From contig CALWMK010000002.1 in assembly GCA_944381825.1 (NCBI GenBank), positions 34,660 to 98,659 on the forward strand: a DNA stretch of 64,000 bases, given 5' to 3'. The translations under genes were made by a program, and so were the position numbers. The notes under the pieces were generated by a model. It saw only the letters and a list, made by a program, of their open reading frames with translations, was not told the origin of the DNA and ran no database searches. Below are positions 24,420 to 62,468 of this stretch, piece by piece (positions within the stretch are counted from its first letter, which is position 1; every line of letters begins with the position of its first letter). The stretch comes from an uncultured Clostridia bacterium. Lineage in GTDB: Bacteria > Bacillota > Clostridia > Christensenellales > UBA1242.

Positions 24420-24495
24420 GGGCTGTTAGCTCAGTTGGTAGAGCAACTGACTCTTAATCAGTGGGTCCGGGGTTCGAGTCCCCGACAGCCCACCA
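24420..24495 (+). tRNA. tRNA-Lys (anticodon CUU), CCA encoded
   Basis: Hand-folded cloverleaf: GGGCTGT/ta/GCTC-agttggta-GAGC/a/ACTGA-CTCTTAA-TCAGT/gggtc/CGGGG-ttcgagt-CCCCG/ACAGCCC/a/cca. All stems pair, 76 nt. Confidence 0.95.
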
Positions 24496-24591
24496 CGCGT
24501 TAGTCCCTTATAAAATAAGGGATTTTTTAATGTCAAGATATTAAAAAAACAACTCAAAACTGTCTAAAATTTTCGTAAAAAGTGTCTAAAA
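24451..24591 (+). repeat. Left 141-bp direct repeat (attL-like): tRNA-Lys anticodon loop to 3' end plus 96 nt
   Basis: Aligns to 28762-28902 with 4 mismatches and no indels (hand alignment). Confidence 0.9.
24504..24528 (+). terminator. Intrinsic terminator after tRNA-Lys
   Basis: TCCCTTAT-aaa-ATAAGGGA hairpin followed by TTTTTT. Confidence 0.8.
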
Positions 24592-28761: not shown

Positions 28762-28902
28762 CTCTTAATCAGTGGGTCCGGGGTTCGAGTCCCCGACAGC
28801 CCACCACGCGATAGTCCCTTATAAAATAAGGGATTTTTTAATGTCAAGATATTAAAAAATTAACTCAAAACCGTCTAAAATTTTCGTAAAAAGTGTCTAA
28901 AA
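28762..28902 (+). repeat. Right 141-bp direct repeat (attR-like) containing a displaced tRNA-Lys 3' fragment (28762-28806)
   Basis: Identical to tRNA positions 32-76, followed by the same terminator hairpin. There is no matching 5' acceptor or D arm upstream. Confidence 0.9.
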
Positions 28903-29548: not shown

Positions 29549-30850
29549 CTACCTCAAAATATTTAACATTTCCTCAAATGTAACTTGTTTTTGTTCAAAG
29601 GCATTTAAATCTTTTAATGTAAAGTAATTATTTTTCACCTCATCTTCGCCTATAATAACCGCATAGTTAGCATTTGCCTTTGTCGCATATAAAATTTTGT
29701 TTTTAAATTTAGTTTCTTCAAAATAAACAATGTTATTTATATTATTATTTCTAAGTTGATTACTAAGTGCAATGCATTCATCTATTGTGTTACCCATAGG
29801 CAAAATCACAACCTTTGCAATAGCACCTTTTTCTTGTTTTAAAAGGTTGTTTTCTTTTAGTTGGTAAAATAGTCTTGTAAGTCCAATGGACATCCCTACT
29901 CCAGGCAATTTTTCTTTGGTGTAATATTCTGCAAGATTATCGAATCTACCTCCGCTACAAACACTTCCTAAATTTTCATGACCTGTGATAAATGTTTCAT
30001 AAACTGTTCCAGTATAATAATCAAGTCCTCGAGCGATTGAAAGGTTTATATTAAAATAATCTTCTTCAACACCAAACGCGCGCATGTTTTTTATAACATG
30101 CTCCAACTCTTCAACACCTTCATTAAAATCACTATTGTCTATTTTAAATTTCTTAAGTTTTTCAAGTTGTTGATTTGTAGTACCGTCAATTTTAATAAAT
30201 TGAAGCAACTTATTAATAATATCATCCTCAATTTTGTAGTCCAATTTCAAAGTAAGAACAAAATTTTCCTCACCAATTTTAGCAAATTTATCAATTAATC
30301 TTAAAATATCAACTGAATCTTTTAGTCCCAAATTTTCAATTAGTCCCAATAAAATTTTTCTATTGCTAACAAAAATAGTAAATTTACCTATATTTAATTC
30401 TTTGAAAATTCTATACATGATGCTTGGAATTTCTGCATCATAATAAAGACTTAGAGAGTTTTTCCCAATAACATCAATATCGCATTGATAAAATTCTCTA
30501 AATCTTCCCTTTTGAGGTTTTTCACCACGATAAACCTTTCCTATTTGATACCTTGCAAAAGGGAAATTGAGTGAATCAAAGTTCGCAGCGACATATTTCG
30601 CTAAAGGCACAGTAAGGTCAAATCGCATACAAATTTTGTTATCACCTTTTGTAAAACTATAAATTTGTTTTTCAGTTTCTCCGCCAGCTTTAGCAAGTAA
30701 CACTTCACTGTTTTCTAAAACCGGTGTGTCTATAGGCAAAAAACCATAACTTTCAAAATTTTTTTTAATTATATTCACAACTTTATTAAACAAAATTTGA
30801 TCTTCTGGCAAAAGTTCCATAAAGCCAGGCAAAGTTTTTGGTTCTATCAT
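29549..30850 (-). CDS. hisS: Histidine--tRNA ligase
   Basis: 433 aa with class II motifs (RYQIGKVYRGEKPQKGRFREFYQCD, GGRFDNL). Confidence 0.95.
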   Translation of the reverse strand: MIEPKTLPGFMELLPEDQILFNKVVNIIKKNFESYGFLPIDTPVLENSEVLLAKAGGETEKQIYSFTKGDNKICMRFDLTVPLAKYVAANFDSLNFPFARYQIGKVYRGEKPQKGRFREFYQCDIDVIGKNSLSLYYDAEIPSIMYRIFKELNIGKFTIFVSNRKILLGLIENLGLKDSVDILRLIDKFAKIGEENFVLTLKLDYKIEDDIINKLLQFIKIDGTTNQQLEKLKKFKIDNSDFNEGVEELEHVIKNMRAFGVEEDYFNINLSIARGLDYYTGTVYETFITGHENLGSVCSGGRFDNLAEYYTKEKLPGVGMSIGLTRLFYQLKENNLLKQEKGAIAKVVILPMGNTIDECIALSNQLRNNNINNIVYFEETKFKNKILYATKANANYAVIIGEDEVKNNYFTLKDLNAFEQKQVTFEEMLNILR

Positions 30851-30872: not shown

Positions 30873-30901
30873 ATTTTAAATATATTTTATAATTTTGTCA
30901 A
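30873..30901 (-). promoter_or_regulatory. SigA-type promoter of hisS
   Basis: Minus strand: TTGACA (30901-30896), 17-nt spacer, TAAAAT (30878-30873). The leader is short, with a TAGGAG RBS. Confidence 0.6.
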
Positions 30902-30974: not shown

Positions 30975-31003
30975 TAATAAAAGTTCACACCTGTTAAGTG
31001 TGA
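30975..31003 (-). terminator. Candidate terminator downstream of argS and the repeat array
   Basis: The minus strand reads TCACACttaacagGTGTGA followed by ACTTTTATT. Confidence 0.45.
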
Positions 31004-31080
31004 TTAAAAAATTATATTTTTTTTCGTTAAACATTGTTTTTAAATTAACACATGCTTTTATTATTTTCGAATTTATTATA

Positions 31081-31551
31081 TAAACTATGTGATGTTAAAT
31101 TTTGCTTGCGCCAAAATTTAAGTTTTGTTTACACAAAACAAAGCAAAAACTATTGTTTTTTCTTCATCACAGTTTGAATTAACATCAGTTTTGCTTGCAA
31201 ATGACTTCGTCGCTTGCAGACAAAACTTCCGATAATATAAACTATGTGATGTTAAATTTTGCTTGCGCCAAAATTTAAGTTTTGTTTACACAAAACAAAG
31301 CAAAAACTATTGTTTTTTCTTCATCACAGTTTGAATTAACATCAGTTTTGCTTGCAAATGACTTCGTCGCTTGCAGACAAAACTTCCGATAATATAAACT
31401 ATGTGATGTTAAATTTTGCTTGCGCCAAAATTTAAGTTTTGTTTGCATAAAACAAAGCAAAAACTATTGTTTTTTCTTCATCACTATTTGTATTAACATC
31501 AGTCATTTGAAAATAATGCTTCGCATTGCTTTCCTCTGACTTCCGTTAATA
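31081..31551. repeat. Tandem array of 3 x 157-bp hairpin-rich modular repeats
   Basis: The landmark TAAAC recurs at 31081, 31238, 31395 and 31552, an exact 157-bp period. Units 1 and 2 look identical by eye. Unit 3 differs in a 41-nt module (31501-31541). Confidence 0.9.
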
Positions 31552-31773
31552 TAAACAATAAGTTTAAGCATTATACCAAATCTCGTCAATAGCATTAAAT
31601 CTAAATATATAATTAAAATGTTTATGAATTTTGTTTGTCATTATTCTTTTTCTAATGATTCTACAAACATAATCCACCTCATCAAAATTAAATTAAAAAT
31701 TTATGATTCAATTAAATAACTTAAAACCAAAGATAAATAAAAATATGTTTCCCCTAATTAGCACATGAAAATC

Positions 31774-33531
31774 TCACATTCTATCCAAGCTTTTAATTGC
31801 AAGAAGCTTTAAACATTTTTCTATAACTTCCAAAGTCAATTTAGTCAATTCAATCTTTGAACTTTTAATTTTAGTATCCTGCTCATATATTATGCTTGAT
31901 TTTGCATAAAAGGAATTAAATGCATTTGCCAGTTTATAAACATAGTCACAAATAAGGTTTGGAGACAAACTTTTATATGCTAAAACTATTTCTTTGTGAA
32001 ATTGAATCAAAATCAGGGCAAGTTTTCTATCTTCTCCAAAGATTTCAAAATCGACATTAGAAGAAAAGTCTTTTACCTTATTTAAAATGGATTTTGCTCT
32101 TGTCACTGTGTACAAAATATATGGTCCTGTCTTGCCTTCAAATGAGGTAAATTTATCAACATCAAAAATATAATCTTTTGTTCTATAAATTGACAAGTCT
32201 GCAAATTTTAATGCTGCAAGAGCTATGACATTTGCAATATTTTCCATCTCATCATTTAAAAGCAAATCTTCTTGTTTTGATAGTTTTAATTTTTCAAGAG
32301 CTTTAGTTTTAACATCTTGAATCAAAACACTAAGTTGCATAACTCCACCATCTCTTGTTTTATAGGGCTTTCCATCTTTGCCATTCATGGTGCCAAACCC
32401 AACAAAACAAAGTTCGATAGGCTTTTTTAAAATTTTGATTTTATTGACACATCTAAAAACCTGTGTGAAATGCATTTCTTGTCTGTTGTCAACAACATAA
32501 ATTATTTTGTCTACATTATTTTCTCTTTCTCTTTGAACAATTGTCGCTAAATCTGTTGTACTATACAAAACAGAACCATCAGATTTTAAAAGTATAAAAG
32601 GAGGCACCTCTTTTTTATCACCTTCTTCACTTACATCTACTATCCAAGCTCCTTGACTAAGCTTTGCATATCCGCTATTTTTTGTATATTCGACAACCTC
32701 TTCATAGTATTTTCTGGAGTCACTTTCTCCAAGCCAAAGATCAAAACTAACATTTAAATTATCATAGTTTTTTTTCAAATCTTTTTTGGAGAGTTCTAAA
32801 ATATTTTTCCATAGAGCAAGATATCCACGTCTTCCATGTTGAAGTTCAAAAGTTGCTTGTTTTGCCTCTTCCATGGCATTTTCATCACTTTTTGCCCGCG
32901 CACTAGCTTTTGGATATAAAATTGAAAGTTCATCTAATGTTACGGGTGAAAAATCAGGATATTTTCCCTTATAATGTTCATCAAAATATACTAAATTAGG
33001 TTGCATTCTTTTAATTTCAGTTATAACCATGCCCATTTGAAGCCCCCAATCCCCCAAATGCACATCACCCAATGTGTTATCTCCTAAATATGAACATAGC
33101 CTTTTTATACTCTCACCAATTATAGCCGTTCTCAAATGACCAACATGAAGAGGTTTTGCAACATTTGCACCACCATAATCAACTATAACATTTTTTTTCT
33201 CACCATGTTTTTTTACTATTTCATCTACATGTTTTAAATATTTAACCAAATACTTAGCAAGCTCAAAATTATCTAAAAATATGTTTATGTAGCCAGGCGC
33301 AGCAACACTTGCATTTGCTATTAGTTCCACTTTCCCTAAATTAGAAAGAACATCATTTGCTATTTGCATAGGAGATTTATGATATTTTTTTGCCAACATA
33401 AGGGGCTCACAACATTGATAATCTCCTAAATTTTCCAAACTACAAATTTGAACATTAACATCTTCATTATATCCGCTTTTTTTAAAAGCATTTGAAAGCT
33501 CTTTTGCTAATATTTCTTCAACTAATTCCAT
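31774..33531 (-). CDS. argS: Arginine--tRNA ligase
   Basis: 585 aa with the class I HIGH-type motif PLHVGHLRTAIIG and an anticodon-binding C-terminus. Confidence 0.95.
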   Translation of the reverse strand: MELVEEILAKELSNAFKKSGYNEDVNVQICSLENLGDYQCCEPLMLAKKYHKSPMQIANDVLSNLGKVELIANASVAAPGYINIFLDNFELAKYLVKYLKHVDEIVKKHGEKKNVIVDYGGANVAKPLHVGHLRTAIIGESIKRLCSYLGDNTLGDVHLGDWGLQMGMVITEIKRMQPNLVYFDEHYKGKYPDFSPVTLDELSILYPKASARAKSDENAMEEAKQATFELQHGRRGYLALWKNILELSKKDLKKNYDNLNVSFDLWLGESDSRKYYEEVVEYTKNSGYAKLSQGAWIVDVSEEGDKKEVPPFILLKSDGSVLYSTTDLATIVQRERENNVDKIIYVVDNRQEMHFTQVFRCVNKIKILKKPIELCFVGFGTMNGKDGKPYKTRDGGVMQLSVLIQDVKTKALEKLKLSKQEDLLLNDEMENIANVIALAALKFADLSIYRTKDYIFDVDKFTSFEGKTGPYILYTVTRAKSILNKVKDFSSNVDFEIFGEDRKLALILIQFHKEIVLAYKSLSPNLICDYVYKLANAFNSFYAKSSIIYEQDTKIKSSKIELTKLTLEVIEKCLKLLAIKSLDRM

Positions 33532-52458: not shown

Positions 52459-52811
52459 TGGTGGAAACGGTGGGATTTGAACCCACGTCCGAATAGGCTG
52501 AATTTTGCCTTTCTCCGTGTGCAGTTTATGTTTTAGTTTCATTCAAGTTTCTTCCATAAACAAAATAAACTTGAACAAGCCACAATTTTAAATTTCAAAA
52601 ATTAGTGACAAATTTTTGAAATTTCCTATTATCATTTGATGCCAAATAAATTTTTAATAGGAAAAAAATTTATTGACAAGTTGCATTAGGCTGCAACAGC
52701 GCCGTAATTGTTATTTGCGTTTATTTTTTGACCAAGTTTTTAGGTAGGCTCAGCCATCTACCACACGCTTTATACAAAATCTAGTCCCAATCGTCGAAAC
52801 CTATCGTCCCC
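52459..52811 (-). ncRNA. ssrA: tmRNA (SsrA)
   Basis: The minus strand starts GGGGACGATAGGTTTCGACG and ends GGACGTGGGTTCAAATCCCACCGTTTCCACCA. The acceptor stem pairs with a G3-U. Internal tag frame: GCA AAT AAC AAT TAC GGC GCT GTT GCA GCC TAA (ANNNYGAVAA*). It lies immediately after smpB. Confidence 0.93.
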
Positions 52812-61964: not shown

Positions 61965-62151
61965 TTTGTTACAACCTTTTTGTTTTAAACAAATAATAAA
62001 TTTTATTTTTTCAAATTTGCAAGAATGAATTAATAACAAAAAGATTTTGAAATATATTCAAAACGTGCATTAATATAATATCATACATTAAAATTTTTGC
62101 AAAATATTTTACCCCTCTCACAAGCAGTGCACTATTATCTATATAAATTTA

Positions 62152-62444
62152 TATTATCGGAAGTTTTGTCTGCAAGCGACGGAGTCATTTGCAAGCAAAA
62201 CTGATGTTAATTCAAACAGTGATGAAGAAAAAACTTTAGTTTTTGCTTTGTTTTGTGTAAACAAAACTTAAATTTTGATGCAAGCAAAATTTAACATCAC
62301 ATAGTTTATATAATCGGAAGTTTTGTCTGAATGCGCCTTTAGACATTTCCAAACAAAACTGATGTTTATTAAAACTGTTATGAAGAAAAAACATCAGTTT
62401 TTGCTTTGTTTTGTGTAAACAGAACTTAACATCACATAGTTTTT
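62152..62444. repeat. Second array (2 units) of the 157-bp repeat family, inverted relative to 31081-31551
   Basis: Unit 62152-62308 is the reverse complement of the 31238-31394 unit with 6 mismatches in 157 (hand alignment). Unit 62309-62444 has a different 42-nt module and a clean 23-nt hairpin deletion. Confidence 0.9.
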
Positions 62445-62468
62445 AATATAATTTTAATAATTTTTATC

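Follow-up and report, generated by a model that had tools for sequence, protein, structure and literature searches.

An interspersed repeat with a covarying multi-helix fold and an exchangeable hairpin in uncultured Clostridia

The DNA analysed here, a stretch of 64,000 nucleotides from an uncultured Clostridia bacterium (hereafter the window), is AT-rich (GC 29.4%), has most of its long open reading frames (ORFs) on the minus strand, and carries two arrays of one repeat in opposite orientations. Array A (31079..31549, minus strand) consists of three head-to-tail 157-nt units between argS (31774-33531) and hisS (29549-30850), both minus-strand genes identified by Pfam. With boundaries set by regular expression, the units of array A are A1 (31393-31549), A2 (31236-31392) and A3 (31079-31235), all on the minus strand, and they score 82-101 bits against the covariance model described below. 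TRF reported this array with a period of 157, 2.7 copies and 98% matches, and it also emerged as one family in a general repeat search. Array B (62154-62445, plus strand) contains two units and is located between an aconitase-X gene and an unknown ORF. Both arrays are directly preceded by TATA on their 5' side (31550-31553, minus strand, and 62150..62153, plus strand), a junction or target motif according to the flank logos, and TATA is also found after the last unit of array A. The conserved motifs of the units are not expected to occur by chance in the window.

Sequence inspection revealed a candidate extended -10-like motif, TGGTATAAT (31570..31578, minus strand), about 20 nt upstream of array A, where a consensus promoter scan reported a weaker overlapping site. 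A terminator-like hairpin, TCACACTTAACAGGTGTGA, with a T-rich tail (30985..31003, minus strand) was located about 75 nt downstream of the array and upstream of a promoter-like site for hisS, TTGACA-17-TAAAAT (30873-30901, minus strand). Placed between the -10-like motif and this hairpin, array A could, on sequence grounds, be an independent transcription unit; array B is not bracketed by such signals. A T-box or a hisS/argS leader was considered for array A and rejected, since there was no Rfam match, the neighbours are not conserved between copies, and the separate promoter-like site of hisS and the terminator-like hairpin intervene. A tRNA-like cloverleaf was likewise discarded, as ARAGORN found nothing at the arrays.

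Units of the family are 135-175 nt long, typically 145-170 nt, with a mode of 157 nt. On the forward strand each unit begins with TTATCGGA, followed by a hairpin (H1), a linker GATGKTWATWCAAAC, one nucleotide, the 5' strand of helix P1, and the hairpins H2a, H2 and H3; the 3' part comprises the 3' strand of P1, AUA, GUUU and AUA, with the end motif CATAGTTTATA and the end sequence GTTTATA. The unit is thus divided into two domains. The first is the long imperfect hairpin H1, flanked by the invariant TTATCGGA and GATG, and the second is a four-way junction in which P0 and P1 close the three hairpins H2a, H2 and H3. P0 pairs the GUUU near the 3' end with the AAAC of the linker, and the 5' strand of P1 is GTGATG or a covarying alternative. 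Minimum-free-energy (MFE) folds of very divergent family members agree on this combination of hairpin and four-way junction. Successive units are joined by a nearly invariant sequence, CATAGTTTATATTATCGGAAGT. A further outer stem, TATTATCGG/GATGTTWAT, was rejected as a helix, because its sequence is conserved with no covariation and the pairing would mostly be T·T mismatch.

Unit B1 (62154..62310, plus strand), defined by sequence, MFE folds and a covariance-model match of 94.9 bits, served as the reference for this anatomy. Every helix is supported by covariation. The unit contains the 5' invariant TTATCGGA (62154-62161), H1 (62162-62202), the linker GATGTTAATTCAAAC (62203-62217), the P1 5' strand GTGATG (62219-62224), H2a (62225-62248), H2 (62250-62267), H3 (62270-62292), the P1 3' strand CATCAC (62295-62300) and the P0 3' strand GTTT (62304-62307), the unit ending at 62310. 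H2 and H3 form a 23-nt internal tandem duplication in this subfamily (62251..62294, plus strand; TRF period 23, 2.0 copies, 81% matches). The second unit, B2 (62311..62445, plus strand), is 135 nt long and lacks H3. The original prediction had noted this missing third hairpin, and the 23-nt duplication explains why the deletion is so clean: B2 lost one copy of the duplicate, by a deletion between TTAA microhomologies.

The original prediction centred on H1, which it described as a swappable 41-nt hairpin present in three unrelated sequences with one fold. The positions hold as given. Variant V1 is found in A3 (31187..31227, minus strand) and A2 (31344..31384, minus strand), both with a GAA loop, and in B1 (plus strand) with a GGA loop; variant V2, AGTCAGAGGAAAGCAATGCGAAGCATTATTTTCAAATGACT, occupies A1 (31501..31541, minus strand); and the 42-nt variant V3 is at 62319-62360 (plus strand) in B2, with the expected sequence. 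The predicted folds around a central GAA or GGA triloop were also reproduced, V1 folding into 8+6+3 bp around GAA or GGA and V2 into 5+5+5 bp around GAA. As RNA, V1 and V2 have folding z-scores of -4.4 and -3.8, respectively, and none of 200 dinucleotide shuffles folded as well, so that the shuffled controls proposed with the prediction do not give equivalent hairpins. As DNA, the z-scores of V1 and V2 are -2.1 to -2.5. V3 folds weakly (z -1.9).

The three variants are not unrelated, however. V3 shares both arms with V1. V1 and V2 have in common the base AGT…ACT, the core AAGC/ATTT (A-T, A-T, G·T, C·A) and the tip C-GAA-G, in general C-GNA-G, and intermediates link them: when the H1 sequences of 106 family units were grouped by single linkage at 80% identity, V1-like and V2-like hairpins fell into one cluster of 64. 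V1 and V2 are therefore homologous versions of H1, and V3 is a decayed V1. The internal mismatches of V1 and V2 lie at similar positions only loosely, as the conserved core is shifted by 2 nt between them. A survey of 81 distinct H1 sequences, about 76 of them from family members, showed which features are constant: the invariant AGT/ACT base, a covarying basal stem of 5-8 bp, and the mismatch steps, T·G then C·A, with a middle stem that ends in G·T then C·A. The tip varies in length and is usually closed by C-GNA-G or a 4-nt loop; it is absent in the 28-34-nt forms, has 3-5 bp in the 40-43-nt forms, and carries an extra 12 nt in the 51-52-nt forms. The lengths of H1 are mainly 28, 34, 40-43 and 51-52 nt, so that 41 nt is the commonest length but not a fixed one across the family.

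To collect the family, a pattern scan keyed on the flanks of H1 (TATATWAWCGGAAGT-N20-50-ACTGATGKT) was used, which yielded at least 113 loci, 4 of them chance matches. At least about 150 copies were found in at least about 51 species-representative metagenome-assembled genomes (MAGs) of uncultured Clostridia. Among the matches listed, the host labels are uncultured Clostridia, Christensenella, Catabacter and Christensenellales, and the sources are human, roe deer, yak, buffalo and reindeer, with one isolate name containing 'binchicken'. A pattern defined by GAAGAAAAAAC…AACATCACATAG had no match in viral contigs or genome contigs, and only two eukaryote-like chance matches in JGI metagenomes. 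Another member, locus L009, was found through a spurious 61-aa ORF called inside the repeat. Its V1 hairpin, together with the 5' flank, is identical over 60 nt, and the junction domain attached to it differs in sequence while keeping the architecture.

Strain relatives of the window were obtained through exact-protein matches in ENA and Logan human-gut assemblies and in the NCBI assembly GCA_964323845.1, and point to a gut bacterium that has rarely been sampled. The argS-hisS locus varies by strain, with one unit carrying V2 (L015), two units V2-V2 (L001), three units V2-V1-V1 in the window, and …V1(GGA)-V2' in L002. Strains of the window's species thus have V1 or V2 at the same array positions, and the unit adjoining argS was V2 in all strain contigs reaching it. 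In array B, all four strains seen have V1(GGA) followed by V3, and the state of B2 is also present in L010-L012. Very often a short-read contig begins or breaks off within a unit (L002-L006, L016-L022 and many of L023-L135), which makes the repeat a systematic breakpoint of assembly in these MAGs; among the strain relatives, this holds for most short-read contigs. At one locus (L013, 4477-4800, GCA_964323845.1 contig CAYDMD010000004.1), argS is followed by a V2 unit without H2a to H2 and then by an unrelated region with an Asp23 gene in place of hisS; from its sequence, this may be a rearranged third repeat locus or else a chimera that arose in assembly through the repeat. About 150 nt further on, this contig has a solitary inverted mini-hairpin, the reverse complement of GAAGTTTTGTCTAAAGAGACAAAGC, which resembles a stump of H1. 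Downstream of hisS, gene content varies among strains (L002-L004).

To assess whether the fold is conserved, a covariance model was built from a seed of 16 units with a hand-written structure, because MAFFT alone aligned the hairpins poorly and RNAalifold on the MAFFT alignment performed poorly. A total of 106 forward-strand matches with E<1e-12 were then aligned to the model. Standard pairs occupy 88.7% of the paired cells, compared with 68.2% after partner shuffling and 35-50% after sliding by 1-3 columns. Double-sided changes were observed in 47 of the 57 pairs, in 1085 cells across the 106 copies, and none of 500 shuffles reached any of the observed covariation measures. All pairs of P1, H2a, H2 and H3 show such changes, and so do 3 of 4 in P0 and 17 of 19 in H1. 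RNAalifold, one of the checks proposed with the original prediction, recovered 28 pairs from the same alignment, 27 of them with compensatory change. The alignment behind these counts was fitted to the model, and its copies are mutually related; nonetheless, an artefact is unlikely in view of the sliding control and of the variety of pair types in each column. All these results showed that the fold of the whole unit, with six covarying helices, is under purifying selection across about 51 species. The idea that the fold is kept while the sequence changes, proposed for the 41-nt hairpin, is thus borne out and extends to the whole 157-nt unit.

In the junction domain, G·U wobbles outnumber A·C on the forward strand (68 versus 27), and an invariant G·U adjoins tandem G·A/A·G, which together indicate that the forward strand is the structured strand. 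The wobble and C·A steps of H1 are strand-symmetric and therefore uninformative on this point. The loops of the forward strand are of GNRA-, GNNA- and CUUG-like types, and the tip of V2 contains GCGAAGC. GCGAAGC is an unusually stable DNA mini-hairpin, and GNA triloops are stable DNA motifs. The loops thus fit stable motifs of both RNA and single-stranded DNA (ssDNA), and the data favour neither decisively.

We then compared how the two domains vary among copies. The identity of H1 and that of the junction domain are nearly uncoupled (r = 0.25). Among unit pairs with H1 at least 95% identical, 81 of 212 have junction domains less than 65% identical, and conversely, where the junction domain is at least 90% identical, 22 of 143 pairs have H1 less than 60% identical. 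Within the window, A1 and A2 have junction domains that are 96% identical and H1 hairpins that are only 60% identical. The family-wide pairwise comparison therefore bears out the modular build proposed in the original prediction, and the sequences show H1 and the junction domain to be reshuffled between copies, probably by recombination or template switching at the 15-20-nt invariant segments that bracket H1. Two adjacent units at locus L117 (1011-1320) share a hairpin-rich insertion of about 95 nt in the linker between H1 and the junction domain, which suggests that the linker tolerates cargo.

Most arrays consist of a single unit (105 of 137); two units are present in 27 arrays, three in 3 and four in 2, the total taking in contigs from strains of the window's species as well as a few spurious relaxed-pattern matches. 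Units were counted by regular expression, because Infernal drops overlapping neighbours in arrays. Adjacent units are mostly unlike each other: in 20 of 30 pairs the junction domains are less than 70% identical, and just 6 of the 30 pairs are near-identical. The arrays are therefore not mainly local duplications. That the repeats are ordinary slippage-generated tandem repeats, with palindromes under no selection, is hardly credible: three pairs of identical neighbouring units and the slippage-type loss of H3 between 23-nt repeats would fit, but every helix shows compensatory changes in the comparison of about 51 species, shuffled sequences fold worse, and most copies are solitary and dispersed.

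The genomic context of the copies was examined with neighbour genes called by a simple long-ORF method. Copies are intergenic, dispersed and in both orientations: both neighbours run in the direction of the array in 23 cases and against it in 22, while 17 arrays lie between divergent genes and 10 between convergent genes. About 10 copies have their end no more than 30 nt from a co-oriented start codon, which gives them a 5'-UTR position; some copies abut a ribosome-binding site and, by this position, must be transcribed as 5'-UTR. Among 197 neighbouring genes, no family had more than 3 members, which indicates that the sites are not orthologous between species. Several neighbours encode aminoacyl-tRNA synthetases, namely hisS, argS, glyS twice and serS twice, glyS and serS being named from N-terminal sequence alone, a count not clearly above expectation. 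At two loci (L009, 508-552, and L030, 6272-6360) the element is located about 100-250 nt from a tRNA gene. At two others, L034 and L063, which are unrelated loci, the nearest gene encodes a phage-type integrase-like protein with a similar N-terminus; two of about 115 loci are too few to tie this protein to the repeat.

No coding capacity was detected in the repeat. Unit lengths are not multiples of three, and no ORF was found between H1 and the junction domain in any copy. A small peptide or type I toxin was rejected, as the frames are not conserved and length changes are not multiples of three. No tnpA, tnpB or RAYT gene was carried by the copies or found among their neighbours, and no candidate transposase or recombinase was found, within about 8 kb around each copy. 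Neither a promoter nor an intrinsic terminator was found inside the unit, and a self-promoter was rejected on the grounds that the TATATT/TATTAT box has no usable -35 at proper spacing.

The ends of the units show a distinct pattern. TATA is present at 96-100% of left flanks (n=113) and 89-95% of right flanks (n=79), against a flank background of about 38-39% each for A and T. Positions -6 to -1 of the left flank read TTTATA at 72-100%, and T A n T T is found at positions -9 to -5 (71, 63, -, 72 and 82%), like the 3' end of the unit; in the right flank, T T A T at positions +5 to +8 (65, 85, 63 and 54%) resembles the 5' start of the unit. Where one side departs from TATA, the other does not follow, so no simple target-site duplication is demonstrated and TATA may belong to the unit itself. 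Among the best-matching left flanks, roughly a quarter (about 11 of 45, by eye) carry further remnants of the unit. The junction-like flanks fit the insertion of a junction-bearing intermediate into junction-like sites, and also decayed neighbouring units. A search with joined flanks found no empty sites, and insertion was hence not observed directly.

To relate the repeat to known elements, we searched Rfam 15, which gave nothing at gathering score in the window except tmRNA and tRNA, nothing meaningful at E<=10 for the arrays and L009, and nothing at E<=0.1 for five other loci. Searches by blastn with 11-nt words against 72,556 plasmids returned no match, phage collections gave no meaningful match, viral contigs gave none, and the invariant 13-mer of the repeat was not found in the literature searched. 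A MITE was rejected, as there are no terminal inverted repeats (the left end TTATCGGAAGT is unlike the right-end reverse complement TATAAACTATG) and no site-varying target-site duplication, the TATA deviations being unmirrored.

Among described repeats, bcr1 of the Bacillus cereus group comes closest, an element of about 155 bp with TTTAT direct repeats, transcribed, in which compensatory changes keep a multi-stem fold; it has no identified mobility mechanism, and its movement is possibly site-specific-recombination-like (PMC3184786, PMC6542083, PMC6199540). Both are non-coding, multicopy intergenic repeats of about 155 bp (here with a mode of 157 nt) with a non-conserved distribution, compensatory changes (here in 47 of 57 pairs) and TTTAT-type flanks (here TTTATA on the left at 72-100%, and the unit end GTTTATA). 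They differ in that bcr1 is confined to the B. cereus group and is described as two independent stem-loops, whereas the repeat described here occurs in uncultured Clostridia, combines a hairpin with a four-way junction, and shows heterologous arrays and module exchange. In sequence the comparison is indirect: a plasmid collection expected to include bcr1-bearing Bacillus plasmids gave no match, and the two are set apart by description. By analogy, the repeat appears to work like bcr1 and is not a member of it.

The original prediction had likened the repeat to BOX elements of Streptococcus pneumoniae, which are modular non-coding intergenic repeats with a stable predicted fold that are transcribed and vary in module number (PMC3184786). 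The likeness holds for the kind of element, both being modular, non-coding, multicopy and foldable, but does not extend to family membership. By architecture, BOX is boxA-boxB(n)-boxC with the internal module multiplied, whereas here the whole unit repeats and modules are exchanged, and the only internal copy-number change is that of the 23-nt H2/H3 duplicate. Integron attC sites are similar in being hairpins recognised by shape, with a conserved base, mismatches and a variable terminal structure. In this repeat, however, R''/R' (RYYYAAC/GTTRRRY) is absent, the outer segments are TATTATC and GATGTTWAT, and there are neither cassette ORFs nor an integron context.

We favour, with moderate confidence, the explanation that this is a previously undescribed, selfish, non-autonomous, structure-dependent interspersed repeat whose closest analogue is bcr1, consistent with its intergenic, dispersed copies in both orientations and with a copy number of 1, 2 or 3 at argS-hisS among strains. 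Such an element would spread through a single-stranded intermediate, ssDNA being favoured over RNA, with an enzyme encoded elsewhere recognising the fold. It would insert at sites that resemble its own unit junction, TAnTT-TATA-TTAT, and each copy would recreate the target at its own end, so that repeated insertion would give head-to-tail arrays. An IS200/IS605-like ssDNA route predicts a replication-orientation bias, whereas the gene-strand proxy shows none and the window itself has both orientations. Given the 5'-UTR placement, some copies may also have a role at the RNA level.

The fold might instead serve the host, in that the units would be genes or cis-elements of a structured non-coding RNA that has a function in the cell, for example as a small RNA, a protein sponge or a UTR stabiliser, with the arrays as multi-copy RNA genes and H1 as a variable arm. 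We consider this unlikely. In its favour are the strong covariation, the GNRA, GNNA and CUUG-like loops on the forward strand, the excess of G·U over A·C in the junction domain, RNA folding z-scores better than those for DNA, the extended -10-like motif and the terminator-like hairpin on either side of array A, and the roughly 10 copies in 5'-UTRs. It fits poorly with the random orientation to neighbours (23 versus 22), the absence of conserved synteny, the lack of an internal promoter or terminator, the lack of flanking signals at array B, L009 and most other copies, the strain-variable copy number and the absence of an Rfam family match.

Somewhat less probable still is a miniature transposon of the IS200/IS605 type (HUH, single-strand) or a REP/RAYT-like element. 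H1 and H3 would then be the subterminal hairpins, the left TTTATA the target and the right TTTATA the cleavage site, with the right end recreating the target and so giving rise to arrays. The end anatomy of IS200/IS605 elements, with subterminal hairpins, no inverted repeats and a fixed 5' motif, is compatible with the repeat, and like REP/BIME elements and IS200/IS605 miniatures it has imperfect hairpins with conserved mismatches, no terminal inverted repeats, a clustered arrangement and a short flanking motif. TTTATA stands both 5' of the unit and at its 3' end, with unmirrored deviations as if nothing had been duplicated; arrays are head-to-tail and heterologous; C-GNA-G tips include GCGAAGC; and P0, which covaries, pairs the linker with the 3' end. 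Against these likenesses, tnpA, tnpB and RAYT are missing from the copies and their neighbours, the GTAG/CGTC head of REP is absent (AGT, preceded by CGGA, opens H1), the unit has four to five times the length of these elements, the gene-strand proxy reveals no orientation bias (23 versus 22), and a conserved four-way junction is no known feature of such elements.

Of comparably low probability is a structure-guided mobile element in which about 150 nt of single-stranded RNA or DNA would fold, the linker would pair with the element's own ends and possibly with the target, and the fold would direct a host-encoded or unlinked recombinase. Such a guide-like scheme would be comparable in principle to the guide pairing of IS200/IS605 or to the bridge RNAs of IS110, with no protein gene; in a variant of it, the unit may be a new self-processing RNA. 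A new self-cleaving ribozyme, or unit-length RNAs of the rolling-circle (retrozyme- or viroid-like) kind with the invariant junction as processing site, is improbable. The head-to-tail units, the nearly invariant CATAGTTTATATTATCGGAAGT and a compact multi-helix fold with invariant unpaired nucleotides and tandem G·A point that way, but known ribozyme models gave no match up to E<=10, most arrays (105 of 137) have just one unit, and there are no viral, plasmid or phage matches. For the hammerhead, sequence inspection found CUGAUG and showed the essential A9 and GAAA to be absent.

The family adds a well-supported structured element with six covarying helices in about 51 species to the poorly known uncultured gut Clostridia, and it offers a second independent system, beside bcr1, for studying how small repeats without inverted ends or a transposase move, with a wealth of natural variants. 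Short-read assemblies break at the repeats, through which unrelated loci can also become joined. Their strain-variable copy number makes them possible strain markers, and the covariance model can be used for annotation.

Two other features of the window were observed. A 141-nt direct repeat, 97% identical, is present at 24451-24591 and 28762-28902, its first copy overlapping the 3' part of tRNA-Lys(CTT) (24420-24495). The pair has an att-site-like look around a 4.3-kb insert, in which five ORFs include no integrase and have a LOR/Tubby-like domain as their sole Pfam match. The window also contains an ordinary tmRNA gene (52459-52811, minus strand) with the tag peptide ANNNYGAVAA, which possibly helps to place the organism.
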